From positions 1 to 64,000 of IMG/VR virus record IMGVR_UViG_3300042402_003388: a DNA stretch of 64,000 bases; one strand, given 5' to 3'. The notes below the pieces were generated by a model. It was not told the DNA's origin, ran no database searches, and saw only the letters and a program-made list of their open reading frames with translations. Positions 12,351 through 61,669 of this stretch are shown here, one piece after another (the first letter of the stretch is position 1; every line of letters begins with the position of its first letter). Both the position numbers and the translations under genes were made by a program. This stretch comes from a virus.

Positions 12351-12376
12351 AAATCTTCCTTTTTTTTTCTTTAAAA

Positions 12377-12408
12377 TTTGACTGTTGTTTAAAAAGTTGT
12401 TATCTTTG
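12377..12408 (+). promoter_or_regulatory. Bacteroidota-type promoter
   Basis: TTTG-N20-TATCTTTG. Confidence 0.65.
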
Positions 12409-12432
12409 TATTGTTGTTCTTTGAAACATATT

Positions 12433-12506
12433 GGTAGTGGTAGCTCAGAAGGTAGAGCATCCGTTCGAACAACGGTGTGCCATTGGTTCGATTCCAGTCC
12501 CTACCA
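12433..12506 (+). tRNA. degenerate tRNA-Phe(GAA)-like element
   Basis: cloverleaf with D and T arms, bulged acceptor stem, non-canonical C33 and C37. Confidence 0.5.
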
Positions 12507-12559
12507 CAAAAAAAGATTTGACATTTTAAAATAATGTTAGTATCTTTGAAGTATTGAAC

Positions 12560-40292: not shown

Positions 40293-40311
40293 AGTTAAAT
40301 TTTAAATTTAG

Positions 40312-40391
40312 TATCAGAGGAGGGACTCGAACCCTCACGCCGTAGCATATGCTCCTAAGGCATACGTGTCTACCAATTCCACCACTCTGAT
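40312..40391 (-). tRNA. tRNA-Leu(TAG)
   Basis: cloverleaf ATCAGAG/CTCTGAT, loop CT-TAG-GA, variable arm. Confidence 0.9.
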
Positions 40392-40602
40392 ATTTGGCCC
40401 CACCTGAGATTACGGTGAGTAGATATTCCTAGTTTTTCCTATTGAAAAACCCTGCGTGTCTTACCACTTAAAACGTCAAACATACTCGGTGGATTTGTTA
40501 CGTCCAGGCTCCGACGAACCCCCTCTCTAAAGTCGTGGAAGGCGACAACTATAACATCTTGAAAGAACGTTACCAAACTTTCAGAGTATCTCTTACTCTT
40601 AG
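40392..40602 (-). ncRNA. unknown ~210-nt structured RNA between Leu tRNAs
   Basis: GC-enriched, multiple hairpins, no credible ORF. Confidence 0.45.
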
Positions 40603-40688
40603 TACTCGGGGCGGGAATCGAACCCGCACGGACCTTACGGTCCATCAGATTTTAAGTCTGACGTGTCTACCTATTCCACCACCCGAGC
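40603..40688 (-). tRNA. tRNA-Leu(TAA)
   Basis: GCTCGGG/CCCGAGT, loop CT-TAA-AA, long variable arm. Confidence 0.92.
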
Positions 40689-40690
40689 GT

Positions 40691-40700
40691 TTCAAAGAAC
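40691..40700 (-). promoter_or_regulatory. boxA-like element
   Basis: GTTCTTTGAA between TACATTTG promoter and tRNA-Leu. Confidence 0.6.
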
Positions 40701-40730
40701 TATGGTACAAATGTACGAAAGAAATTTCAA

Positions 40731-41228
40731 TTAATCAAATCCCATCGAACTTTTATATTCAATCCACACACGTTCAATTGAATTATTTAGAACATCTGAG
40801 AATAAGGATGGTTCATATGGTTTTGCCCTCATATTCAAACCCGCTTCTTGTGGTGTTCTGTCTGCTTTGTATAAATTACACTTATGACAACAAGTTACCA
40901 AGTTACTCCAAGTATTCTTACCACCCTTTGATTTTGGTATAACGTGGTCTAACGTTAATTGTTTTGTTGAACCACAATAAACACATTCTCCATTATCTCT
41001 TCTGTAAATTCTATTTCTGTTAACCCTAATATTCCTAACTCTGTATTTTACATACTTCAATAGACGAATGATTAATGGACGAACAAAATTTTGATAACCT
41101 GCATAGATAGGGTTGTCGGAACTCTTTAAGATTTCCGCTTTACCTTTAAACACTAACTTAAAACCTCTTTGAGGTGAAGTTACGTTTATTGGGGTATAAT
41201 CCGAATTTAATACTAATACTCTATCCAT
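40731..41228 (-). CDS. HNH endonuclease
   Basis: RD...CVYCG...TLDHVIPKSKGG...W.NLV.CC.KCN..K. Confidence 0.9.
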   Translation of the reverse strand: MDRVLVLNSDYTPINVTSPQRGFKLVFKGKAEILKSSDNPIYAGYQNFVRPLIIRLLKYVKYRVRNIRVNRNRIYRRDNGECVYCGSTKQLTLDHVIPKSKGGKNTWSNLVTCCHKCNLYKADRTPQEAGLNMRAKPYEPSLFSDVLNNSIERVWIEYKSSMGFD

Positions 41229-43540: not shown

Positions 43541-45307
43541 ATGGATAAAATAATATATAATGTTGCAAGCTATAAAAGAGGAGATACTTTAATAAAAACT
43601 ATACAATCAATTTATAATCAATGTGATATTATCAACGTTGCACTTAATGATTATGATGAAATACCTGTTGAATTGTACGATAAAAAAATAAATTTATTTA
43701 TTACGGATAATGACAGAGGGGATGCGTATAAATTTTATAAATTAATGAATTCTGAGGGTTATTATTTCACAATTGATGATGATTTAATATACCCCGAAAA
43801 TTATACCGAATATATGGTTGATAAAGTTAATCAATATGGTAAAAAATCGATAATTACACAACACTCAAGAAGTTTTAATTCATTTCCTATTAATAATTTT
43901 TATGGTCGTAATACCTTAGTTAATCATTTTAAACAACTACAAACTAACGATATTAAAGTTCAATTTGGAGGTACTGGTGTTATGTGTTTTCACACTGATT
44001 TATTTAAAGTACCTATTGAATATTTTGATAGACCAAATATGGCTGATGTGTGGATTGGTAAATACGCAAAAGAAAATGATATTGATATTATATGCGTCAA
44101 ACATAATAGCGGGTTTGTAGTACAACAAAATTTTGAGGACTCAATATATACCTCCGATTCCAAAAATGATACAATTCAGACAATTTTGACTAACGACTGT
44201 TATATGGATAAGGAAGTGTCGATAATCATACCTACATTTGATAATGTTGAATATATTCAAGAATGTTTAGATTCCGTAGTATCCTCGTGTTCTATGATTA
44301 ATAACTTTGAAATATTGGTAGGTATCGACTATTGTCCAAAAACTTTAAAATTTATAATGGAAAATAGTTTTGACTATCGAATAAGATTTTATTTTTTTAA
44401 TGACAATGTCGGTCCGTATATCATTAAAAATTCATTATCAAGAATTTCTAAATCGGATAATATAATTTTTTTTGATTCTGATGATGTTATGGATAAAGAT
44501 ATGGTTAGTGAGGTTTTGTTAGGACTTAAAACTTCAGAATGTGTTAAACCAATGTTTCATAATTTTACTAATTATATTGATTATGACGACCCAAAATATA
44601 ACTTAGAAACTAAGTTATTTGGTGAAGGGGTATTCGGAATTAAAAAAAATATTTTTTTAAATTTTAACGGGTTTGAAGGGTGGAGATGTGCCGCGGATTC
44701 TGACTTTATGGTTAGAATTCAAAAAAATGGAGTAACATTTAATTGGGCTAAAAAATTATTGTTTTACCGAAGAATACACGATAAAGGTTTAACAACGATT
44801 CCTGAAACTAATTATGGGTCTAAATTACGTAAACATTATATTGAGTTAACAAATTCAAAAACAAATTTTGGGCCACTGGATGAAATGAAGATTTCGGATT
44901 TTACAAGAATTTATACTAAAACAGAAATAACTAAAATTAGTTATCGTAATATTATACCGACCAAACCTGTAATTGAGACTCCACAACATAGTACTGAGGA
45001 TACTTTAAAACAAGTTTATTCTAAAAGTACGGTTATCGATAATAAAGTTAAACCAATTAATACTGAGGATAAAATTCTATCTAAATCAATTGAAAAGTCG
45101 GATAATAGTACAGTAGAAGATATTCGTAAAAATGTTTTATCATTATTGTCTGATAAAAAAGTTGTTAAAAAAATTGATAAGGATTTGATTGACCAAAAAA
45201 GACAAAATAGTAGAGATGTTGTAATACCGTATACAATTCAACCTGTTAAAAAGACCAGTAGAACGAGTGGGATTAACACAAAAAGAGGGGGAGGATTTAA
45301 TTTTTAA
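43541..45307 (+). CDS. two-domain GT-A glycosyltransferase
   Basis: TIDDDLIYP; VSIIIPTF; FFDSDD; DSDF. Confidence 0.85.
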   Translation: MDKIIYNVASYKRGDTLIKTIQSIYNQCDIINVALNDYDEIPVELYDKKINLFITDNDRGDAYKFYKLMNSEGYYFTIDDDLIYPENYTEYMVDKVNQYGKKSIITQHSRSFNSFPINNFYGRNTLVNHFKQLQTNDIKVQFGGTGVMCFHTDLFKVPIEYFDRPNMADVWIGKYAKENDIDIICVKHNSGFVVQQNFEDSIYTSDSKNDTIQTILTNDCYMDKEVSIIIPTFDNVEYIQECLDSVVSSCSMINNFEILVGIDYCPKTLKFIMENSFDYRIRFYFFNDNVGPYIIKNSLSRISKSDNIIFFDSDDVMDKDMVSEVLLGLKTSECVKPMFHNFTNYIDYDDPKYNLETKLFGEGVFGIKKNIFLNFNGFEGWRCAADSDFMVRIQKNGVTFNWAKKLLFYRRIHDKGLTTIPETNYGSKLRKHYIELTNSKTNFGPLDEMKISDFTRIYTKTEITKISYRNIIPTKPVIETPQHSTEDTLKQVYSKSTVIDNKVKPINTEDKILSKSIEKSDNSTVEDIRKNVLSLLSDKKVVKKIDKDLIDQKRQNSRDVVIPYTIQPVKKTSRTSGINTKRGGGFNF

Positions 45308-45369
45308 AAATAAAATTTGACTTTTTACGTTACATACGTATATTTAATTAAAAACAAGTAAAACTGCAA

Positions 45370-45444
45370 ATGAAAACAACACATATCATACTAATAGGCG
45401 GGACAGATAGAACTGAAGCGACTACTCCAATGGAGATGGTGTGA
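45370..45444 (+). CDS. leader peptide 1 (24 aa) of tRNA array 1
   Basis: MKTTHIILIGGTDRTEATTPMEMV; codons match array-1 tRNAs; TGGAGATGG pairs with terminator arm. Confidence 0.8.
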   Translation: MKTTHIILIGGTDRTEATTPMEMV

Positions 45445-45468
45445 TATTCCTATACTATGAATTCACTG

Positions 45469-45497
45469 AACCCATCTCCAAAAGAGATGGGTTTTTT
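45469..45497 (+). terminator. attenuator terminator 1
   Basis: AACCCATCTC-CAAAA-GAGATGGGTT + T tract. Confidence 0.85.
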
Positions 45498-45520
45498 GTT
45501 TTTAGATTGTTAAACATTTT

Positions 45521-45530
45521 GTTCTTTGAA
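45521..45530 (+). promoter_or_regulatory. boxA-like element
   Basis: GTTCTTTGAA ahead of first tRNA; overlaps a second TTTG..TATCTTTG promoter. Confidence 0.6.
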
Positions 45531-45564
45531 ATATTGGTTGTATCTTTGTAAAAGATTTAAAAAT

Positions 45565-45636
45565 GGTCCCTTCGTCTATCGGTTAGGACATATCCCTTTC
45601 ACGGATAAAAGACGGGTTCGATTCCCGTAGGGACTA
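45565..45636 (+). tRNA. tRNA-Glu(TTC)
   Basis: cloverleaf, loop CT-TTC-AC. Confidence 0.9.
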
Positions 45637-45657
45637 CAAAACTTAAAAAATATTATT

Positions 45658-45921
45658 ATGCCAGAATTTAACACTTATGTTGATGTAGACGTTTACGAAT
45701 TTATTGATGAATGTTCAAAAAGTGAAATTAATGAGTTAATTGACGATTTAATTGATAGGGGTTACTTAAACAAAAATAGTAAAGGGGTTGGTAAACCACC
45801 GAAATATTCATTAATTGAGGAAACTCATAGAGATTATTGTGATGTTTTGGCGAATTCTTACCATAGAATGAGTAAGGAAGACGAAGAAACAATCGCGAAT
45901 ATTGCTAAAAAATATTCGTAA
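45658..45921 (+). CDS. hypothetical protein
   Basis: 87-aa ORF inside tRNA array. Confidence 0.7.
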   Translation: MPEFNTYVDVDVYEFIDECSKSEINELIDDLIDRGYLNKNSKGVGKPPKYSLIEETHRDYCDVLANSYHRMSKEDEETIANIAKKYS

Positions 45922-45928
45922 TAAAAAT

Positions 45929-46002
45929 GGGGGTGTATGTCTCAAGGCCGACGAGAATGATTTGCAATCAATCTGGGGTGAGTTCGATTCTCACCATCTC
46001 CA
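45929..46002 (+). tRNA. tRNA-Ala(TGC), atypical
   Basis: G3:U70 pair, loop TT-TGC-AA, mismatch in anticodon stem, unusual D arm. Confidence 0.7.
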
Positions 46003-46006
46003 CAAT

Positions 46007-46097
46007 GTTATCATAGCTCAGTAGGATGAGGCCGCAATCGGATTCCTTTAAACAACGCGTGAGGGGCGGCTTTCACGATGTGGCTGAAGTGATAACA
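46007..46097 (+). ncRNA. tRNA-like element with expanded anticodon arm
   Basis: acceptor GTTATCA/TGATAAC, TAGCTCAG D arm, GCCGC/GCGGC stem enclosing ~30 nt, non-canonical T loop. Confidence 0.55.
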
Positions 46098-46107
46098 AAT
46101 AATATAT

Positions 46108-46179
46108 CGCGGGATAGAGCAGTGGTAGCTCGCAAGGCTCATAACCTTGAGGTCGGGGGTTCGAATCCCTCTCCCGCAA
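46108..46179 (+). tRNA. initiator tRNA-fMet(CAT)
   Basis: C1:A72 mismatch, CGCGGG start, loop CT-CAT-AA. Confidence 0.9.
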
Positions 46180-46188
46180 CTAATATAT

Positions 46189-46262
46189 CGTGGGTTAGAC
46201 TGGAGGTGGTTCCAGCTTGGTCTCATAAGCCAAAGACGGGGGTTCGAGTCCCTCACCCGCAA
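46189..46262 (+). tRNA. tRNA-Met(CAT), initiator-like
   Basis: C1:A72 mismatch, loop CT-CAT-AA, unusual D arm. Confidence 0.75.
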
Positions 46263-46340
46263 CAAAGTGTCTCGGTCCGCTCTGACGAAAGTTAACGACG
46301 AGGTCTCGGTAGACAGAACGCGTCTGATTCTACCCAAAAT

Positions 46341-46413
46341 GCGAGAGTAGCTCAGTTGGTAGAGCACAACCTTGCCAAGGTTGGGGTCGCGGGTTCGAAT
46401 CCCGTCTCTCGCT
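46341..46413 (+). tRNA. tRNA-Gly(GCC)
   Basis: canonical cloverleaf. Confidence 0.95.
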
Positions 46414-46422
46414 CAATAATAA

Positions 46423-46495
46423 GCGGATATCGTATAATGGCTTATTACTTCAGCCTTCCAAGCTGAAGATGTGAGTTCGATTCTCACTATCCGCT
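46423..46495 (+). tRNA. tRNA-Gly(TCC)
   Basis: canonical cloverleaf. Confidence 0.92.
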
Positions 46496-46500
46496 CAAAA

Positions 46501-46573
46501 GGTCCCGTGGTTGAATGGTTACAATTCCACCCTGTCACGGTGCGAGGTACGGGTTCGAATCCCGTCGGGACCG
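46501..46573 (+). tRNA. tRNA-Asp(GTC)
   Basis: loop CT-GTC-AC, G73. Confidence 0.9.
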
Positions 46574-46581
46574 CAAACTTT

Positions 46582-46653
46582 GGTCTATTCGTTCATCGGC
46601 TAGGATGCTACCCTGTCACGGTAGTGAGGAGGGTTCGATTCCCTCATAGACCG
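46582..46653 (+). tRNA. tRNA-Asp(GTC), second divergent copy
   Basis: loop CT-GTC-AC, G73. Confidence 0.9.
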
Positions 46654-46683
46654 CAAAAATAAATTAATTTATACTTATTGAGT

Positions 46684-46842
46684 ATGGATAAAGAAAAATG
46701 GGATTCTGATGAATGGCAAGGGCGTTCTAAAGACAGGGTCGAAAAAAACAATAAAGTTTTTGGATACTCTATATTACTTACAATACTTGGTACAGTAATT
46801 TGTTATTTATACGTCATAATATCCACTTATTTTAGATTTTGA
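46684..46842 (+). CDS. 52-aa membrane protein (below ORF-track cutoff)
   Basis: MDKEKWDSDEWQGRS... plus C-terminal TM helix. Confidence 0.6.
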   Translation: MDKEKWDSDEWQGRSKDRVEKNNKVFGYSILLTILGTVICYLYVIISTYFRF

Positions 46843-46892
46843 TTTGTTATTTCGTAAAAAATTTACTAAATTTGTAGTGTAAATAAAATATT

Positions 46893-47069
46893 ATGTGGGT
46901 AATTGTAAAATTAATGGAAAGTCTTAATGGTGTTAAAGTTCCTGTCATTATCTTAGATGGACACTCAGAAATTTGGGAATTTGAAACTGAAGAAGAGGCG
47001 GTTAAAATGAGAGACATTTTTTCTAAAAACTCGGACTCAGGTCACGTTTACTTAGTTAAAAAAGTCTAA
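46893..47069 (+). CDS. 58-aa hypothetical protein (below ORF-track cutoff)
   Basis: MWVIVKLMESLNGVKVPVIILDGHSEIWEFETEEEA... Confidence 0.65.
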   Translation: MWVIVKLMESLNGVKVPVIILDGHSEIWEFETEEEAVKMRDIFSKNSDSGHVYLVKKV

Positions 47070-47074
47070 CAAAT

Positions 47075-47148
47075 GGTTCCGTAGCTCAGCTGGATAGAGC
47101 AACTGCCTTCTAAGCAGTAGGTCACAGGTTCGAATCCTGTCGGGACTA
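47075..47148 (+). tRNA. tRNA-Arg(TCT)
   Basis: canonical cloverleaf. Confidence 0.95.
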
Positions 47149-47163
47149 CTAAATTAAAAAATT

Positions 47164-47418
47164 ATGGTTGATATTAATCAAGATATTGTATTTGAGGAAG
47201 AACATAATGAGTTTATTAAAAGTGAGTTATTCTGTCAAATGATGAAAGAAAAAATAGAACATTCTGCGTATCATAAATTTGATGGTATTGCACCTGAAGG
47301 ATTTACGTTGGTACCAAATGAGGTGTTAGAAGAACTTAAGGACTTTGACAATTGGAAGGAGTTTAAATACGATTTAGAATGGATTAAGAAAAATTCTATA
47401 AAGTATTTGGTAGTTTAA
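47164..47418 (+). CDS. hypothetical protein
   Basis: 84-aa ORF. Confidence 0.65.
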   Translation: MVDINQDIVFEEEHNEFIKSELFCQMMKEKIEHSAYHKFDGIAPEGFTLVPNEVLEELKDFDNWKEFKYDLEWIKKNSIKYLVV

Positions 47419-47435
47419 CTTATAAAAAATAATAT

Positions 47436-47714
47436 ATGAAAAAATTTGCACCATACGTATTAGTACTTATTTGGTTTTTAGTTATTGGGTTATTGGCGTT
47501 CTTATTGACAGGATGTAAAAATAAGAATAAAATAGAACCTGGTGATAAAGTAGTTAAATGTGTAATTGATAGTGTTTCAACTGAAGGACCTCGTTCAACT
47601 ATTGAACCGTATGTAAGATATTATTACTATACCAAATGTGGTGAAAGACTTATTACCAATCGAGATGACATTTACAAAATTGGGGACACGATAACTTACG
47701 TATATAAAAAATAA
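47436..47714 (+). CDS. lipoprotein/membrane protein
   Basis: hydrophobic N-terminus ending LTGC. Confidence 0.65.
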   Translation: MKKFAPYVLVLIWFLVIGLLAFLLTGCKNKNKIEPGDKVVKCVIDSVSTEGPRSTIEPYVRYYYYTKCGERLITNRDDIYKIGDTITYVYKK

Positions 47715-47719
47715 AATAA

Positions 47720-47792
47720 GCCTCCTTAGCTCAGCTGGTAGAGCACTTCACTTGTAATGAAGGGGTCGTAGGTTCGAATCCTACAGGAGGCT
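47720..47792 (+). tRNA. tRNA-Thr(TGT)
   Basis: canonical cloverleaf. Confidence 0.95.
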
Positions 47793-47798
47793 CAAATT

Positions 47799-47872
47799 GG
47801 TCCTTTAGCTCAGTTGGTTAGAGCAGCTCACTCATAATGAGAAGGTCACAGGTTCAAGTCCTGTATGGACCA
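47799..47872 (+). tRNA. tRNA-Ile2(CAT, lysidine type; reads ATA)
   Basis: CAT anticodon with ileX-like body (GGTCCTT, GGTTAGAGCA, TTCAAGT). Confidence 0.75.
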
Positions 47873-47893
47873 CAAATATCTAAAAACACAAAT

Positions 47894-48061
47894 ATGCAAC
47901 TTATATTCAATATTATCGCAACAATTGTATTCCTAATCTTTGGGATTATATGGAGTAAGAAAACGTTCACAGACATTATAGCCAAAATAATTTGTCTTGG
48001 TTTATCCATTTTAGGAATTATTCTAATTTTGATACAATGCGGGTATATTATTAAAAAATAG
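47894..48061 (+). CDS. small two-TM membrane protein
   Basis: ATG at 47894; upstream extension overlaps tRNA. Confidence 0.6.
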   Translation: MQLIFNIIATIVFLIFGIIWSKKTFTDIIAKIICLGLSILGIILILIQCGYIIKK

Positions 48062-48076
48062 TCATATATTTGTACT

Positions 48077-48352
48077 ATGAAAAGTTACCTGATTATTAGA
48101 GAGGATTATTTTAATGAAAAAGGAATTGGTAACAATACTCATTTCTGTATTAAAGAATCTAAAAAATTTTTATGGTTTGAATGGTGGTCGTACGTGAAAT
48201 ACAAAGAATGTTACGAAAGTGGTTCATATAACACTGTTTTAAAGTTCACTAATTTATATGAAGCAGAAAAATTTGTTAATGAAGTTTTGTTAAAAAACGG
48301 ACCAAGACAAAAATGGTCATCTATGACCCTAAAAGAAATAAAAGAAAAATGA
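48077..48352 (+). CDS. hypothetical protein
   Basis: 91-aa ORF after TATATTTG. Confidence 0.65.
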   Translation: MKSYLIIREDYFNEKGIGNNTHFCIKESKKFLWFEWWSYVKYKECYESGSYNTVLKFTNLYEAEKFVNEVLLKNGPRQKWSSMTLKEIKEK

Positions 48353-48936
48353 AAACGATATTTTTAGACCACGATGGAGTAATCTGTTTATCCACAGAGT
48401 GGGGTGGTCGTTACAAGAAACAAAAAAAATGGGGAGAACTTAAAATGTCTATGGGGATGAATGAAATCCCTATTGAATTTAGATTTGACAATTTTAATAA
48501 GAAGGCAATCAAAATTCTGAATTCAATTATTGAAGAAACTGGTGCTGAGATAGTAGTTTCATCTGATTGGAAACGATGGGCAACTGTTGAGGAAATGGGA
48601 CAATACTACGAATCTCAAGGGATTATCAAAAAACCAATCTCATTTACTCCAAACTTAAGTGAATGTAATAACTATGATGGTTCATTTCCTTGGAATAGAG
48701 ATTGGGATTTAGAACAAACTCGTACATTAGAAATTAACCAATATTTGAAGGACCATCCTGAGGTGACAGAATGGGTTGCAATCGATGACCTTAATATGGG
48801 AAAAGAGGGGATGTCATATTCAATTAAATGGGTTCACGATTGGGGTTTAGATAATTTTGTACTAACACCAAAAGGTAATGAAGGGTTAAAACAATCAGGA
48901 ATTAAAGAAAAAGTTTTATCTTTTTTAATAAAATAA
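48349..48936 (+). CDS. HAD phosphatase (Swiss-army-knife RNA-repair type)
   Basis: IFLDHDGVI; IVVSSDWK; WVAIDD. Confidence 0.85.
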   Translation: MKTIFLDHDGVICLSTEWGGRYKKQKKWGELKMSMGMNEIPIEFRFDNFNKKAIKILNSIIEETGAEIVVSSDWKRWATVEEMGQYYESQGIIKKPISFTPNLSECNNYDGSFPWNRDWDLEQTRTLEINQYLKDHPEVTEWVAIDDLNMGKEGMSYSIKWVHDWGLDNFVLTPKGNEGLKQSGIKEKVLSFLIK

Positions 48937-48943
48937 AAAAATA

Positions 48944-48974
48944 TTTGACAATTACGGAATTTTTCGTAACTTTG
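48944..48974 (+). promoter_or_regulatory. Bacteroidota-type promoter of leader 2
   Basis: TTTG-N19-TAACTTTG. Confidence 0.7.
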
Positions 48975-49019
48975 TAGTAATTATAGAAACAGGTAGAAAT
49001 ACCACAACAAATAGAAAAA

Positions 49020-49130
49020 ATGAAAAACACTAATAAACATATGAACGTCGTGATTTGGAAACAACAATTTAGTAATTGTTCGTATCCGCGTATTTCGCAT
49101 ACAAGTTCAGTTGATGAAGGTTTAGTGTAA
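49020..49130 (+). CDS. leader peptide 2 (36 aa) of tRNA array 2
   Basis: MKNTNKHMNVVIWKQQFSNCSYPRISHTSSVDEGLV; codons 5-27 match array-2 tRNAs; AGTTCAG pairs with terminator arm. Confidence 0.85.
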   Translation: MKNTNKHMNVVIWKQQFSNCSYPRISHTSSVDEGLV

Positions 49131-49164
49131 TGTAAATAAAATAACATACAACAAATATCTCAAG

Positions 49165-49196
49165 TCCTGAACTCAAAAAGTTCAGGATTTTTTTTT
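49165..49196 (+). terminator. attenuator terminator 2
   Basis: TCCTGAACT-CAAAA-AGTTCAGGA + 9 T. Confidence 0.85.
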
Positions 49197-49206
49197 GTTA
49201 TAAAGT

Positions 49207-49216
49207 GTTCTTTGAC
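49207..49216 (+). promoter_or_regulatory. boxA-like element
   Basis: GTTCTTTGAC right after the terminator. Confidence 0.65.
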
Positions 49217-49236
49217 ATATTGGTAAGAAAAGTAAA

Positions 49237-49308
49237 CGGGGTGTAGTCTCGAGGAGAGACGCGTGTTTTGGGAACACGAGGCGGCAGGTTCGACTCCTGT
49301 CACCCCGA
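49237..49308 (+). tRNA. tRNA-Pro(TGG)
   Basis: CGGGGTG/CACCCCG, loop TT-TGG-GA. Confidence 0.9.
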
Positions 49309-49314
49309 CTATAT

Positions 49315-49388
49315 TGTCACATAGCTCAGTTGGTTAGAGCGTTCGCCTGATACGCGAAAGGTCGATGGTTCGAGTCCATCTGTGACAA
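49315..49388 (+). tRNA. tRNA-Ile(GAT)
   Basis: canonical cloverleaf. Confidence 0.92.
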
Positions 49389-49394
49389 CTTAAT

Positions 49395-49469
49395 GTCTTC
49401 GTAGCTCAGTTGGTTTAGAGCACCTCACTTTTAATGAGGGAGTCACAGGTTCGAGTCCTGTCGGGGACA
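49395..49469 (+). tRNA. tRNA-Lys(TTT)
   Basis: canonical cloverleaf. Confidence 0.92.
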
Positions 49470-49475
49470 CAATAT

Positions 49476-49547
49476 GGTCGGTTGGCCGAGTGGCTTAGGC
49501 GATAGTCTGCAAAACTATCTACACAGGTTCGATTCCTGTACCGACCT
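49476..49547 (+). tRNA. tRNA-Cys(GCA)
   Basis: loop CT-GCA-AA, U73. Confidence 0.92.
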
Positions 49548-49552
49548 CAAAT

Positions 49553-49625
49553 ACGTCTGTAGCTCAGTTGGTAGAGCACTGGTCTCCAAAACCAGGTGTC
49601 GGTGGTTCGAATCCATCCAGGCGTG
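49553..49625 (+). tRNA. tRNA-Trp(CCA)
   Basis: loop CT-CCA-AA. Confidence 0.92.
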
Positions 49626-49629
49626 CAAT

Positions 49630-49703
49630 GACTCAGTAGCTCAGGGGTTTAGAGCAGTTGACTGTTAATCAACGGGTCGTAGGTTCGATTCCTACCTGGG
49701 TCG
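49630..49703 (+). tRNA. tRNA-Asn(GTT)
   Basis: loop CT-GTT-AA. Confidence 0.92.
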
Positions 49704-49706
49704 CAA

Positions 49707-49841
49707 TAGGTTGATTAGGGAATGATTGTACTGATAGTTCGAGAGTGAATACTGACTAGTACAATCGGAGTTTGCAGGTATTCACCCGAGTAATGCTAAT
49801 CGTAAAAACAGATGTCCACTGAACCATCTTCTGTTTTCCTA
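49707..49841 (+). ncRNA. unknown ~135-nt RNA with loop-loop pseudoknot
   Basis: GATTAG/CTAATC, GATTGTACT/AGTACAATC, GTGAATACT/GGTATTCAC, AAAACAGA/TCTGTTTT. Confidence 0.6.
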
Positions 49842-49845
49842 AATT

Positions 49846-49926
49846 GGGAGTGTTGAGCAACGGTTGCTTAGCTGACTGTAAATCAGTGGTCTTACGACAT
49901 TGGGGGTTCGAATCCCTCCACTCCCA
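49846..49926 (+). tRNA. tRNA-Tyr(GTA)
   Basis: loop CT-GTA-AA, variable arm. Confidence 0.9.
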
Positions 49927-49934
49927 CAAAATAA

Positions 49935-49961
49935 AAAAGGGGATATAAATCCCCTCTTTTT
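49935..49961. terminator. bidirectional intrinsic terminator
   Basis: AGGGGAT-ATAA-ATCCCCT flanked by A and T tracts. Confidence 0.65.
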
Positions 49962-49979
49962 CGATTAGGTCGTTATCAA

Positions 49980-50144
49980 TTATTTCTGTTTAGCAATAAT
50001 TGACCATACACCACCAACTAATGTAACTGCAGCTCCGATAAGTTCTTGAACTGTTGAATCAGTTGCAAGACCTTTCATAATCAGGATACCACCCACAAAA
50101 GTAAGTGCGTGTCTAACGATACCTTGGATTTGTTCTTTAGTCAT
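49980..50144 (-). CDS. small two-TM putative holin
   Basis: MTKEQIQGIVRHALTFVGG...GVWS; TATTTATA upstream on - strand. Confidence 0.7.
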   Translation of the reverse strand: MTKEQIQGIVRHALTFVGGILIMKGLATDSTVQELIGAAVTLVGGVWSIIAKQK

Positions 50145-50200
50145 TATAAATTTGATTAAAGGTTTATGCCAGACTATAAATATTGGAAAAACGGTCAAAC

Positions 50201-50271
50201 TGTCCTTTCGTCTAATGGCAGGACACGTGGTTTTGGTCCACGCGGTGGAGGTTCGAATCCTCCAGGGACAA
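50201..50271 (+). tRNA. tRNA-Gln(TTG)
   Basis: loop TT-TTG-GT, U1-A72. Confidence 0.9.
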
Positions 50272-50325
50272 CAAGGGGTTAGGTGGAAACCCAAGAGTAG
50301 GTGATGAGTCTACGTCCACCAAAAT

Positions 50326-50397
50326 ACCGATGTAGCTCAGTGGTAGAGCACTTCTTTCATACGGAAGGTGTCGGAAGTTCAATTCTTCCCATCGGTA
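50326..50397 (+). tRNA. tRNA-Met(CAT), elongator
   Basis: paired 1-72, loop TT-CAT-AC. Confidence 0.8.
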
Positions 50398-50403
50398 CTT
50401 AAC

Positions 50404-50478
50404 AGTTCCTTAGCTCAGTTGGTTTAGAGCACTTCTTTTACACGGAAGGGGTCGTAGGTTCGAATCCTACAGGGACTA
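50404..50478 (+). tRNA. tRNA-Val(TAC)
   Basis: loop TT-TAC-AC. Confidence 0.92.
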
Positions 50479-50485
50479 CAAAATG

Positions 50486-50522
50486 CCAAACTCGGTAGTA
50501 AAACACGTCCAAACTCGGTAGT
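50486..50522 (+). repeat. 14-nt direct repeat CCAAACTCGGTAGT x2
   Basis: copies at 50486 and 50509, just upstream of a TTTG..TACCTTTG promoter. Confidence 0.8.
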
Positions 50523-50633
50523 TTTAAAAAAAGTTTGGTGAATTGAAAAATGTTTCATACCTTTGTATTCACAAACAACGGGGGGTAGGAGTTAGTAAGT
50601 CGGTGGCCTACCCCCCCTGAGACAAGATAGAAA

Positions 50634-50643
50634 GTTCTTTGAA
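50634..50643 (+). promoter_or_regulatory. boxA-like element
   Basis: GTTCTTTGAA after strong GC hairpin 50580-50617. Confidence 0.55.
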
Positions 50644-50652
50644 TTAAAATAC

Positions 50653-50787
50653 TGATAATGGTTTTCCCCACTCAACGGATGTCGACAATCCAGAATGGAA
50701 TCGGAATTCAGCACCCCCTGCCGAGGCCTCGTAAAACTACGATTAAGCAGTTAAGATTGGAGCGAGATGGGTACTCCAACATTATCA
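50653..50787 (+). ncRNA. unknown multibranch RNA
   Basis: closing stem TGATAATG/CATTATCA with four internal hairpins. Confidence 0.5.
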
Positions 50788-50792
50788 TACTT

Positions 50793-50865
50793 GGAACGGT
50801 AGCTCAGTTGGTAGAGCACTTGCCTGAAGAGCAAGGTGTCGGCGGTTCGATTCCGCCCCGTTCCA
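50793..50865 (+). tRNA. tRNA-Phe(GAA)
   Basis: canonical cloverleaf. Confidence 0.92.
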
Positions 50866-50939
50866 CGGAGTCCTGAAATAACAGGAAACCCCCACTCCCA
50901 TATGGCAGCCAGTCCATTAACCTGGTGAAGTGGGGTAAT

Positions 50940-51073
50940 AGTCGAGTGGGCGTAATGAGGGATGGTACCCGAGTCCCCAAGACCAATAGTCCCAGACACT
51001 TGTGGGTTCTATGGAGTCGTAAGGTTGTCTAATCCGTCTTGAACGGTATTCGGTTCGAGTCCGACCTTGACTA
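50940..51073 (+). ncRNA. tRNA-like element (134 nt) with enlarged central domain
   Basis: acceptor AGTCGAG/CTTGACT-A, T arm TCGG-TTCGAGT-CCGA. Confidence 0.6.
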
Positions 51074-51079
51074 CAAAAT

Positions 51080-51181
51080 AGTCAGGAGTCCATTGGTTGG
51101 AGTCACCTCCCCAAGGTTGAGTAACAGTAAGGCTGACTCTTTATGGCAAAGACGGAACAGGTTCGAATCCTGTCCTGACTA
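51080..51181 (+). ncRNA. tRNA-like element (102 nt) with enlarged anticodon loop
   Basis: acceptor AGTCAGG/CCTGACT-A, T arm ACAGG-TTCGAAT-CCTGT, GTCA/TGAC stem with ~28-nt insert. Confidence 0.65.
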
Positions 51182-51185
51182 CACG

Positions 51186-51394
51186 AGTCGAGTAGTATAC
51201 GACTAGTTTGCTCCCGAATGATGAGAAGTGGTGTTACAACCATAGGGACCTGAGCCGATTACTTGAGTCTAAGTCGGTTGGTTAGTGTACCAGTAACAGG
51301 AGTAAGTTAACACACAAGTTCTAACCCCTCACGAAATTGGTGAGTTGCCGCTGAAATTCGGTATTGGGGACAGTCAAAAATGATTGAACGACTA
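51186..51394 (+). ncRNA. unknown ~210-nt structured RNA
   Basis: TTGCTCC/GGAGTAA, AGCCGATT/AAGTCGGTT, CCCC/GGGG multibranch domains. Confidence 0.5.
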
Positions 51395-51397
51395 TAT

Positions 51398-51471
51398 GGT
51401 GGTTATAGCTCAGTTGGTAGAGCACTTGATTGTGGTTCAAGGTGTCACGGGTTCGATTCCCGTTAATCACC
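51398..51471 (+). tRNA. tRNA-His(GTG)
   Basis: G-1:C73, loop TT-GTG-GT. Confidence 0.92.
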
Positions 51472-51477
51472 CAAAAA

Positions 51478-51565
51478 GGAGGAATGGCAGAGTGGTCGAT
51501 TGCACTAGTCTTGAAAACTAGCGTACCGAAAGGTACCGTAGGTTCGAATCCTACTTCCTCCGCCA
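51478..51565 (+). tRNA. tRNA-Ser(TGA)
   Basis: long variable arm, G73, encoded CCA. Confidence 0.95.
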
Positions 51566-51567
51566 AA

Positions 51568-51975
51568 GACCCCACGATTAACGGAAGTATCCGACCGTTA
51601 CGGAGTGTGAACCTGACTTGAAGGCTTCAAGGCTATGGGGGAGGCAACACAAACAAACAAGGATTCCCCATTATGGATTAAGGGGGTAAGGGGCTTTAAT
51701 TAGTCGTAATACAATCCACAAGTTGTAAGAATACTGAACAATCTTACAATACACACTCAGCTTCCGAGTGAGACTCGCCACGTAACTTTGGGGGTAGGGT
51801 GAAGATGTTCTGAGGGTAACCCTGAAATATGGGTGAGAGTAGAAACCCACCGTGGACGGTTACTATGGGCTAACGAATCTTAGTCATATCGGTGAGGGAT
51901 ACTAATGACGCCAGACTATATTAAAAACTAAAAGGTTCTCCTCAAAGGCGGAGGGACGATTCAGGACCTTTTTTA
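51568..51975 (+). ncRNA. 400-nt GC-enriched structured non-coding block (probably several RNAs)
   Basis: successive closed domains, no ORF, ends in hairpin + T tract. Confidence 0.5.
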
Positions 51976-52002
51976 ATCCTACACTTAAAAAATCTAAAAT
52001 AT

Positions 52003-52206
52003 ATGACAGACAAATTACAAGAGTTGTTAGAAACATCTCAAATCGGTGAGCCCGAAATTGTTGACTTATTAAACTCAATGTACAAATTGGTTGAAACTAA
52101 ATTATTTACACAGGATGAGTTCAATGTTGTGTTAGATAGGTTAGGAATCAAACAAGAAGGGAATTCCTTCATTTTTAATGAAGATATGGTTTATACCTTC
52201 AATTAA
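52003..52206 (+). CDS. hypothetical protein
   Basis: 67-aa ORF. Confidence 0.65.
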   Translation: MTDKLQELLETSQIGEPEIVDLLNSMYKLVETKLFTQDEFNVVLDRLGIKQEGNSFIFNEDMVYTFN

Positions 52207-52212
52207 AAGTAT

Positions 52213-52284
52213 AGTCCCTTGGTGTAACGGATAGCACGAAACACTACGGATGTTTTAGTGGGGGTTCGAATCCCTCAGGGACTA
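52213..52284 (+). tRNA. tRNA-Arg(ACG)
   Basis: loop CT-ACG-GA. Confidence 0.9.
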
Positions 52285-52289
52285 CTATT

Positions 52290-52375
52290 GGAAGATTACC
52301 CAAGTTGGTGAAGGGGCTTGTTTGCTAAACAAGTAGGACTGTAAGGTCGCGAGGGTTCGAGCCCCTCATCTTCCG
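52290..52375 (+). tRNA. tRNA-Ser(GCT)
   Basis: loop TT-GCT-AA, long variable arm, G73. Confidence 0.92.
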
Positions 52376-52379
52376 CACA

Positions 52380-52922
52380 TTATCTTAATTGATTATATAC
52401 CGATAACGACTTATTAATGAATACCTTTCTGTCTGATTTTTGATAACAGTCGGATGCGAAATATCCATCAGCGTCATACCTATCAATATGGAATCTTGTA
52501 TCACCAATAGTTTCAATAGACACTATAAAGTTATGACTATCGATATACCCAACCCTAATAATGTTACCAATCAATCTATTAGAGTTATCTTTATTTGATT
52601 GACCAAAACTTATAAAATCAGCGTCAATATCTTTAATATTATCCCATAGTTCAGGATGTAGTAATGTGTCGTCATCATTTGAGTATACATAACCATCCTT
52701 AATCATATCAATAGCGTAATTTCGTTGTGCGTGGCCTGCGGTACTTCTCGGATTTCTATGTAAATACGTCTCACAATTATCAGGAATTAACTTTTTGTCG
52801 GGTAGTTCGTCAAAATCAAAAACAACTATCCATCGATAATTTTCTTTTGGGATGTTTATACTTTCAGAGATTAAATGTAAATTCTCAGGTCTACTACAAG
52901 GTGTTATGATATTTAATTTCAT
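52380..52922 (-). CDS. GT-A fold glycosyltransferase
   Basis: IITPCSRP; WIVVFD; QRN.A; NDDD. Confidence 0.8.
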   Translation of the reverse strand: MKLNIITPCSRPENLHLISESINIPKENYRWIVVFDFDELPDKKLIPDNCETYLHRNPRSTAGHAQRNYAIDMIKDGYVYSNDDDTLLHPELWDNIKDIDADFISFGQSNKDNSNRLIGNIIRVGYIDSHNFIVSIETIGDTRFHIDRYDADGYFASDCYQKSDRKVFINKSLSVYNQLR

Positions 52923-56965: not shown

Positions 56966-58048
56966 ATGTTAGAAAGATTGAACAAATATTATGAGGATGA
57001 GTTGGTGCAAAAACAAGTGCACCCTACACTTCCTTTGACTATATGGAACTACACTCCAAAAGTTCAATACGGTGAAGGTAATAACCAATATAAATTTTGG
57101 GATGAAATCACAAAACAATGTCGTGGATTGGTCACCGACAATGAAGGTAATGTAGTTGCAAGACCATTTAAGAAATTCTTTAACATAGAAGAAAAACAAC
57201 ATACTCCAACTGAAGAGTTTGATGTCTATGAAAAAATGGATGGTTCTTTAGGTATCCTATTCAACTATAAAGGTGAGTGGATTCTTGCAACTCGAGGTTC
57301 TTTTACTTCTGACCAATCAGTTAAAGGTACTGAGTTACTTCAGAAATACGATTATGACAGATTGAATCCTGATTACACTTATTTGTTTGAGATAATATAT
57401 CCTGAGAATAGGATAGTTTGTACTTACGATTTTGAGGATTTGGTGTTGTTAGGAATGATACATACTCAAAGTGGTTATGAAGTTAATATCCACTCAGGTA
57501 ATGATGAGGACGTTAGATTCAAAAATCTTTTGAATAACTTGGGATTCAATATCGTTAGGAAGTATGATGGTATATCGGACTACACTTACTTAAAACACGC
57601 AATTGCCGACAATAAAGAGGGATTTGTTGTTCGATTCACTAATGGAGATAGAATGAAGATAAAAGGGGAGGAATACCTTCGTCTTCATAAGATAATGACT
57701 AACCTATCCACTACAGGTGTTTGGGAAGTATTGAGTACTGGTGGTAAAATGGAGGATTACTTGAAGGATGTTCCTGATGAGTTCTACAAAAAAGTTAAAA
57801 TGTACGTTCAAGATTTAAATTATAACTTCTATCGTTATTCTGAATATGCTGGTAAAGTACACGATTATTTTAGATACGGTAAGTATGGTGATAGGGAAGT
57901 TGAACCAACTAAAAAAGAATTTGCGGAACATTTGGTTAATTGTGAGGTACACCCTAAAGTAAAATCTATCTGTTTTGCAATGTGGGATAGAAAACCATAT
58001 GACCATATTATATGGAATCTAGTTAAACCTAAGTTTGAAAAGCTTTAA
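56966..58048 (+). CDS. RNA ligase (T4 Rnl1-like)
   Basis: CRGL; ARPFKKFFN; EKMDGS; TRGSF; FEII; EGFVV; KIKG..Y. Confidence 0.9.
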   Translation: MLERLNKYYEDELVQKQVHPTLPLTIWNYTPKVQYGEGNNQYKFWDEITKQCRGLVTDNEGNVVARPFKKFFNIEEKQHTPTEEFDVYEKMDGSLGILFNYKGEWILATRGSFTSDQSVKGTELLQKYDYDRLNPDYTYLFEIIYPENRIVCTYDFEDLVLLGMIHTQSGYEVNIHSGNDEDVRFKNLLNNLGFNIVRKYDGISDYTYLKHAIADNKEGFVVRFTNGDRMKIKGEEYLRLHKIMTNLSTTGVWEVLSTGGKMEDYLKDVPDEFYKKVKMYVQDLNYNFYRYSEYAGKVHDYFRYGKYGDREVEPTKKEFAEHLVNCEVHPKVKSICFAMWDRKPYDHIIWNLVKPKFEKL

Positions 58049-61199: not shown

Positions 61200-61585
61200 T
61201 GGTGGAGATGGAGAGATTCGAACTCTCGTCTTGTTCACTTTACATATAAGTGACTACACGTTTAGGTCAACATTTTCTAATGTTCCGAAATTCACAATTC
61301 CCTTATTTTATAGTGGTTCGGTTTACTGAGAACTAATCCTCCACTTGTTTCTTTTCAGATAGAAACCACACCTATAAAGACTTCTGTTCCTAGGTTATAA
61401 GTCCGCCGACCCGAATGTTTTTGTGCTTACGCTACAGAAACAAGCTCATCTTGTTTAACAAGACCTAATAGAGCCATTTTGTCTAAAACGTTGCCGTTTA
61501 CAGTTTTGAATCAGTTTTTACGGAATTAATTCAGTTCCGACGTGCCACCGATACGCAACAATGCCAATCGATTCCATTCATCCCC
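61200..61585 (-). ncRNA. ssrA: tmRNA
   Basis: GGGGATG/CATCTCC-ACCA with G3:U, T arm GAGAG-TTCGAAT-CTCTC, internal tag ORF 61495-61427. Confidence 0.93.
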
Positions 61586-61590
61586 ATATT

Positions 61591-61600
61591 TTCAAAGAAC
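61591..61600 (-). promoter_or_regulatory. boxA-like element
   Basis: GTTCTTTGAA between TATCTTTG promoter and tmRNA. Confidence 0.6.
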
Positions 61601-61669
61601 ATTACAAAGATACGATTTGTTTTTTAAATATCCAAATGTTCGTTGTATTTATTGTTAAAGTAAATATAG

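Follow-up and report, generated by a model that had tools for sequence, protein, structure and literature searches.

Putative codon-matched leader-peptide attenuators precede two large tRNA arrays of an uncultured phage and the tRNA arrays of other viral contigs

We analyzed a window of 64,000 nucleotides (nt), the first 64 kb of the 100.5-kb IMG/VR virus record IMGVR_UViG_3300042402_003388, which carries two large arrays of transfer RNA (tRNA) genes. Each array is probably gated by a ribosome-mediated transcription attenuator, whose short leader open reading frame (ORF) samples the codons read by the tRNAs encoded downstream. The parts of this device, their geometry, the codon match, the co-variation of leader with array in relatives, and compensatory changes in the RNA helices were all observed and are described below. 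A preliminary description of the same DNA had proposed attenuation. The architecture, the isoacceptor-level codon match, and the co-variation in relatives support that proposal, with the response to ribosome stalling itself predicted from sequence.

The same series of parts precedes both arrays. A promoter is followed by a short ORF that begins with ATG, a strong intrinsic terminator, an element resembling the boxA of ribosomal RNA (rRNA) operons, and then the tRNA genes. The preliminary description had placed this layout before both arrays, and we found every part in its place (Table 1). ARAGORN predicts 29 tRNA genes in the window. Array 1 encodes Glu, Ala, two tRNAs with a CAT anticodon, Gly-GCC, Gly-TCC, two Asp, Arg-TCT, Thr-TGT, and a third tRNA with a CAT anticodon. 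Array 2 encodes Pro, Ile-GAT, Lys, Cys, Trp, Asn, Tyr, Gln, Met, Val, Phe, His, Ser-TGA, Arg-ACG, and Ser-GCT. Only CAT genes and Arg are common to both, and the Arg isoacceptors differ (TCT versus ACG). With that overlap, the claim that the arrays split the code almost cleanly between them is correct.

The CAT genes are of more than one kind. Two in array 1 (at 46108 and 46189) have an unpaired C1/A72 and are of the initiator type. The third (at 47799) has a paired 1-72 position together with C4-G69 and C5-G68, features of Ile2 (lysidine) tRNAs, and we take it to be a putative Ile2-like tRNA, which serves as a lead only. The CAT gene in array 2 (at 50326) is an elongator Met type by appearance. 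An unusual tRNA is also found in array 1. The ARAGORN tRNA-Ala (TGC) at 45929-46003 (+) scores 21.6 bits against the Rfam tRNA model, which is under the gathering score.

The codons in each leader are largely those read by its own array. As a null, we simulated random ORFs from the codon usage of the 34 long ORFs in the window. Array 1 reads 17 of the 23 codons of leader 1, and all nine of its species are covered (joint P 3.5e-5). Array 2 reads 29 of the 35 codons of leader 2 and all 15 of its species are covered, which was not equaled in any of 200,000 simulations (P < 5e-6). The choice of isoacceptor follows the same division, with AGA and ATA in leader 1 and CGT and ATT in leader 2. Therefore, the suggestion that each leader uses the codons of its own array at the isoacceptor level was borne out. 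The codons that do not match lie mainly at the 3' end of either ORF, where pairing of the antiterminator dictates the sequence.

The end of leader 1 can pair with the 5' arm of its terminator. The complement is a perfect helix of 9 pairs, and none of 200 shuffled sequences had one as long. When the nascent RNA was folded up to the terminator loop, the antiterminator was the minimum-energy structure for both leaders. The full-length fold of leader 1 has a long-range hairpin across the ORF; the nascent-RNA fold favors the antiterminator. In fold simulations, the antiterminator was masked only if the A site of the ribosome had reached at least codon 18 of leader 1 or codon 28 of leader 2. Therefore, the codons from the second up to these points are the predicted sensing stretches (Table 1). 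Taken together, the units have the parts of a leader-peptide attenuator: a promoter and short ORF, an intermediate terminator, an alternative antiterminator (weak for leader 2 alone), and codons tied to the function of the genes downstream.

CheckV puts the completeness of the 100.5-kb record at an estimated 33%. Near-identical DNA is present in lake and freshwater metagenomes from 16 studies. A distant search of a phage collection with the whole region as the query gave tRNA-sized matches only, and a close relative was not found there. More distant relatives came from scanning viral contigs with the boxA motif, which returned 118 stretches. A longer second pattern added only six new loci, so the first scan had caught most exact matches. 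We identified 46 leader units on contigs of uncultured phages, each with a terminator 2 to 117 nt 5' of boxA and an ATG ORF of 20 to 51 codons. The leader ORFs were picked on geometry alone, blind to the content of the array, and array limits were set by a gap rule of 1,500 nt and by the ends of the loci. For permutation, we used 21 representatives of clusters formed at 60% identity.

Leaders vary widely between these relatives, as do arrays, and they vary together. Among the 21 representatives, 69.3% of leader residues are served by the leader's own array, compared with 51.0% (standard deviation, 2.5) when arrays were permuted (z 7.3; 0 of 20,000 permutations). This is the outcome of a check that the preliminary description had proposed, that leader codons should co-vary with array content in relatives. 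Of 198 cases in which the array had a tRNA for an amino acid, the leader contained that amino acid in 192; where the array had no such tRNA, the leader contained it in 122 of 201 (Fisher 5e-21, a value that ignores relatedness). Tested singly against a leader-like composition, 16 of the 21 representatives were significant, 13 of them at P < 0.01. Individual loci illustrate the pattern. The array of L071 encodes Asp, Glu, Val, Leu, Ala, and Trp, and its leader is rich in exactly these residues. In L056, L108, and L120, the arrays encode Glu, Asp, Tyr, Asn, Cys, Met, and Ile, and the leaders consist almost solely of those residues.

The match between leader and array also holds at the level of isoacceptors for Arg, Ile, and Leu codons. 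Leaders of arrays with only Arg-TCT have 7 AGR and no CGN codons, whereas those of arrays with only Arg-ACG have 2 AGR and 18 CGN. For Ile, the counts are 7 ATA and 2 ATY with Ile-TAT arrays, and 5 ATA and 50 ATY with Ile-GAT arrays. For Leu, they are 26 TTR and 1 CTN where the array has only Leu-TAA, and 5 of each where it has only Leu-TAG. Four contigs have two leaders. Their leaders contain 142 residues of amino acids exclusive to their own array versus 45 of amino acids exclusive to the other array on the same contig, which excludes a genome-wide composition effect. Within class A, the class of leader 1, leaders with at least three Thr codons go with a Thr tRNA when compared by eye; Ala and Arg track unclearly, and array boundaries limit this reading. 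A permutation within classes was also attempted. Single-linkage clustering put 36 of 42 leaders in one class, so there was no valid within-class test, and its z-score was not used.

The predicted switch is conserved as well. In most loci, a complement to the terminator 5' arm lies within the last 2 to 26 nt of the ORF, and it is significant singly in 54% of loci versus 5% expected. The stems are wholly different between leader classes, and the complement is nonetheless retained. In 12 class A leaders, 92.6% of cells in the antiterminator helix are paired, compared with 41 to 60% when the partner was slid, and there are two compensatory pairs. The terminator helix of the same leaders is 93.9% paired, with three compensatory pairs. 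One class A leader (L022:1112-1206) has an early stop just 5' of the antiterminator strand, which could reflect decay of the leader, a frameshift, or faulty assembly.

The geometry bears on the direction of the switch. Residues that match the array make up 70% of positions at least five codons 5' of the antiterminator, versus 54% of those closer to or within it (P 4e-7). This enrichment fits what a sensing stretch should look like and agrees with the fold simulations. The ORF ends 21 to 39 nt before the terminator stem in all 46 units. With this spacing, an antiterminator strand mostly in the last nucleotides of the ORF, and matching codons upstream of it, the arrangement fits stall-dependent antitermination. 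We also considered the reverse logic, a coupling of the pyrBI type in which efficient leader translation promotes read-through, as a positive feed-forward on phage tRNA synthesis. However, the stop codon is too far from the stem for a terminating ribosome to melt it, the conserved complement is mostly in the part of the ORF that such a ribosome covers, and the matching codons lie 5' of that complement. We therefore think the reverse logic quite improbable.

The same data address whether the leaders are related to the tRNAs at all. The short ORFs might be chance neighbors of ordinary terminators, or they might encode small functional peptides that have nothing to do with tRNAs, and in line with this they are short, unannotated, and, for leader 2, followed by an antiterminator that is weak alone. 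The permutation results exclude this explanation (P < 1e-4). The codon match, the isoacceptors, the antiterminator complement with its compensatory pairs, and the single-leader tests all argue against it too. Furthermore, homologous leaders keep their set of amino acids while the order shifts, as with Trp, which is at a different codon in the window than in L091. An origin by chance or as unrelated peptides is hardly credible.

The same two promoter elements with the same spacing are conserved in 12 class A relatives, approximately 25 nt 5' of the ATG. Most leaders of class B, to which leader 2 belongs, have a Bacteroidota-type promoter motif upstream. Most boxA matches in viral contigs are 24 to 32 nt before the first tRNA of an array, a spacing that rules out the element as a -35 element. 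The 100.5-kb record has five boxA cores, against 0.21 expected by chance, and every one of them lies ahead of stable RNA genes. These are tRNA-Phe (12433), a Leu pair (minus strand), array 1, array 2, and the transfer-messenger RNA (tmRNA; minus strand). At the Phe, Leu, and tmRNA units, a promoter and a boxA-like core are present but a leader is not, and the Phe and Leu units also lack a terminator. Therefore, the attenuator has been added specifically to the two large arrays.

In several Bacteroidota genomes, the boxA 18-mer is also found 3' of tRNA-Ala, within the 16S-23S spacer. This supports both the boxA reading and a Bacteroidota host, and the host of the phage appears to belong to this phylum. 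Because exact copies of the 18-mer are rare among bacterial genomes (116 places), we refer to the element as boxA-like rather than as a proven boxA. The context of these bacterial matches was assigned by rRNA motif patterns, which are usable only with tRNA-Ile/tRNA-Ala upstream or a 23S motif downstream, and most matches are unclassified. Some relatives depart from the simple order of parts. In L003, L043, L062, L119, and others, one tRNA lies between the terminator and boxA (Ala-TGC in L043), and in several relatives boxA motifs also recur within arrays, after a tRNA.

We propose the following mechanism. RNA polymerase would initiate at the leader promoter, and a ribosome would translate the leader, which we infer to be a true coding sequence. 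If all sampled codons are decoded fast, the ribosome would reach the end of the ORF and cover the strand that is able to pair with the terminator 5' arm. The terminator hairpin would then form, and transcription would end before boxA. If any sampled aminoacyl-tRNA is scarce, the ribosome would stall in the sensing stretch and leave this strand free. The free strand would pair with the 5' arm once that arm is transcribed, and so block the terminator. Polymerase would continue through the boxA-like element, which may recruit host Nus factors as in rRNA operons, and the array would be made. The new tRNAs would relieve the stall and close a negative feedback loop. The device would thus act as an OR gate for approximately eight tRNA species in leader 1 and 15 in leader 2, and its presumed purpose would be to supply phage tRNAs when the sampled codons are read slowly, with anticodon nucleases as one possible selective reason.

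Several points weigh against this model. One concerns leader 2. The preliminary description had the terminator 5' arm complementary to the end of the ORF in both units, and this stands for leader 1. For leader 2 the complement is present, with only 7 contiguous pairs and a P of ~0.2 alone. Its position is conserved in L018 and L091, and L106 keeps the same ORF position around a different stem, so the relatives support a leader 2 antiterminator. A different point concerns the sensing stretch of leader 1, which has four codons (Lys, His, Ile-ATC, and Leu-CTA) outside array 1, served by array 2 or the Leu pair. Descent is a further concern. The loci share it, so independent events are fewer than loci and the pooled P values are inflated by relatedness; the per-cluster tests and the same-contig contrast are less affected.

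Also on the opposing side, the antiterminator forms in the equilibrium fold even without a ribosome. Therefore, any block of leader translation should open the gate, and the device may report general translation failure instead of the shortage of one tRNA. With one to a few codons sampling each species, sensitivity to mild shortage may be low. A ribosome-free default fold and single codons for most species are both compatible with a device that senses translation capacity or amino-acid starvation in general. Slowing on the leader, or failed ribosome loading, would open the terminator, and the array match would be a by-product of sampling many codons. However, leaders follow the content of their arrays, both from phage to phage and between the two arrays of one phage, and they do so at the isoacceptor level for Arg, Ile, and Leu, for which a general sensor has no need. 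We consider a general sensor unlikely.

Internal promoters raise another objection. Promoter-like motifs occur between the terminator and the first tRNA in 11 of 43 leaders, including that of array 1 here. The sites at 45515-45548 and 50534-50565, which the preliminary description had noted as possible internal promoters, are real consensus matches. Judged by sequence, they could transcribe array 1 and the distal third of array 2 independently of the attenuators. At the extreme, the leader-terminator units would mainly insulate the arrays from upstream transcription, and internal promoters would drive essentially all tRNA synthesis. In most loci, however, the T run abuts boxA and the first tRNA follows after 24 to 32 nt, which leaves no room for a promoter. 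Insulation would also leave the conserved leader promoters and the codon co-variation unexplained, and we view it as very unlikely.

The RNA evidence is limited too, as it consists of contigs from four freshwater metatranscriptomes at low depth, in which 3' ends and strand are not visible. Leader 2 is represented in three of the four. One RNA contig (49034-49242) extends from the ORF across the terminator and boxA into tRNA-Pro. This suggests that leader 2 is transcribed and that read-through molecules exist. Leader 1 was covered at a depth of ~1 in one run, which is too thin to use. The flanking protein-coding sequences at 44800-45307 and 48102-48609 had no RNA cover in any of the four runs, and uncovered parts are no evidence of silence. 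The highest cover in the region is over a structured non-tRNA block in array 2 (51566-51904 [+]), which was present in all four metatranscriptomes with contig depths of ~60 to 900. This block matched no Rfam family.

A T4 Rnl1-type RNA ligase and a HAD domain protein of the RNA-repair type are encoded near the arrays (Table 1), which suggests from their domains a tRNA repair kit. Together with the tmRNA, they fit a phage that expects tRNA damage and stalled ribosomes, and this is context rather than proof. An HNH endonuclease gene (40749-41228 [-]) is directly upstream of the Leu tRNA unit. We raise the tentative idea that the leaders are programmable multi-input sensors of tRNA damage directed against tRNA-targeting immunity. 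One codon per phage tRNA would be monitored, cleavage or depletion of any single host tRNA would thereby be detected, the replacement set would be switched on beside the repair kit and tmRNA, and such a counter-defense sensor would be widespread in phages of Bacteroidota. We think this possible and somewhat doubtful.

Table 1. Positions of leader, array, and neighboring features in the 64,000-nt window
Feature	Position	Strand	Score or basis
Promoter of leader 1: -35-like hexamer, 16 nt, -10/-7-like element; ~25 nt 5' of ATG	45317-45344	+	Score 10/12
Leader ORF 1, 24 codons; predicted sensing stretch, codons 2-17	45370-45444	+
Antiterminator strand 1, 9 nt, complement of 45472-45480 (terminator 5' arm); 3-11 nt 5' of stop codon	45431-45439	+
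Intrinsic terminator 1: stem of 11 pairs (45468-45494), loop of 5 nt, T run	45468-45501	+	Fold z -4.1
boxA-like element 1	45520-45538	+
Possible internal promoter over boxA 1: TTTG, 19 nt, TAnnTTTG-type; 16 nt before tRNA-Glu	45515-45548	+	Full motif match, consensus only
tRNA array 1, 11 genes and small interspersed ORFs	45565-47873	+	ARAGORN
HAD domain protein, RNA-repair "Swiss army knife" type, between array 1 and leader 2	48349-48936	+	PF18143, E 2.8e-21
Promoter of leader 2, Bacteroidota type: TTTG, 19 nt, TAnnTTTG	48944-48974	+	By sequence reading
Leader ORF 2, 36 codons; predicted sensing stretch, codons 2-27	49020-49130	+
Antiterminator strand 2: 7 nt (49104-49110) complementary to 49166-49172, 4 more pairs in fold	49104-49114	+
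Intrinsic terminator 2: stem of 12 pairs (49162-49190), loop of 5 nt, T run	49162-49199	+	Fold z -3.9
boxA-like element 2; 13 nt before tRNA-Pro	49206-49224	+
tRNA array 2, 15 genes with further structured RNAs in between	49237-52376	+	ARAGORN
Promoter-like site (50534-50565), GC hairpin, and boxA-like core; in array 2 before tRNA-Phe	50534-50645	+	Sequence reading, consensus only
tRNA-Phe unit: promoter and boxA-like core	12360-12507	+
Leu-TAA/Leu-TAG unit: promoter and boxA-like core	40311-40740	-
T4 Rnl1-type RNA ligase	57116-57673	+	PF09511, E 2e-20
tmRNA, missed by ARAGORN	61200-61585	-	Rfam RF00023, 99.6 bits
Promoter-like site and boxA core directly before tmRNA	61586-61640	-

The closest parallels are multivalent attenuators of enterobacteria. 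The ilvGMEDA leader senses Ile, Leu, and Val, and the thr leader senses Thr and Ile. Like them, the units described here have a promoter, a short leader that is translated (here by prediction), codons for more than one amino acid, and competing antiterminator and terminator hairpins, and a stall would open the operon. However, the genes regulated here are for tRNAs rather than biosynthetic enzymes, and the product is the molecule sensed. A leader samples as many as 15 species, most of them with one or two codons and without runs, the codons follow isoacceptors, and the device is borne by a phage. The trp, his, phe, and leu attenuators are alike in that the position of a ribosome on a leader ORF chooses between two RNA folds 5' of an intrinsic terminator. 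They respond to one amino acid through tandem codons and have four segments, including a 1:2 pause hairpin, whereas here two competing helices are established. The pheST operon, with its pheM leader, also places a component of the translation machinery under leader-peptide attenuation. It encodes an aminoacyl-tRNA synthetase and has a single amino-acid input and a protein product.

Two other kinds of system share single features with the leaders. T-box riboswitches also respond, through antitermination, to the state of one particular tRNA. They differ in binding uncharged tRNA itself with no need for translation, and each has a single specifier codon. An Rfam search over 44900-52600 found no T-box and no family at either leader, with only tRNA models and sub-threshold chance matches overlapping tRNA genes. 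As with the boxA/Nus system of rRNA operons and the lambda nut boxA, a boxA-like core in this record precedes stable RNA genes. Here, it comes after a conditional terminator and before phage tRNA genes, and factor binding would be by analogy with those systems.

It has been known for over 50 years that phages carry tRNA genes, and what these genes are for is still a matter of debate. As far as we have found, control of phage tRNA synthesis is undescribed. A full-text literature search retrieved papers on phage tRNA function and, within the text it retrieved, none on leader-peptide control of tRNA genes or on a sensor of their synthesis. Two of these papers, by their titles and abstracts, address what phage tRNAs do, with the arrays as codon compensation or as counter-defense against tRNA-cleaving immunity (PMC10264068, PMC11555353). 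The phage analyzed here likewise encodes a large tRNA set, which accompanies an Rnl1-type ligase and an RNA-repair HAD protein.

If our reading is true, these leaders would be the first attenuators whose product is the molecule sensed, and the device would serve as a tRNA homeostat taking as many as 15 inputs. Because the leader spells out the codons that the phage monitors, the question of when a phage needs its own tRNAs would become directly testable. The co-variation across dozens of uncultured phages would provide a ready-made set of natural mutants for such tests, and the leaders may also offer a compact natural design for codon-specific translational sensors. Finally, they would link phage tRNA arrays to tRNA-targeting immunity and repair.

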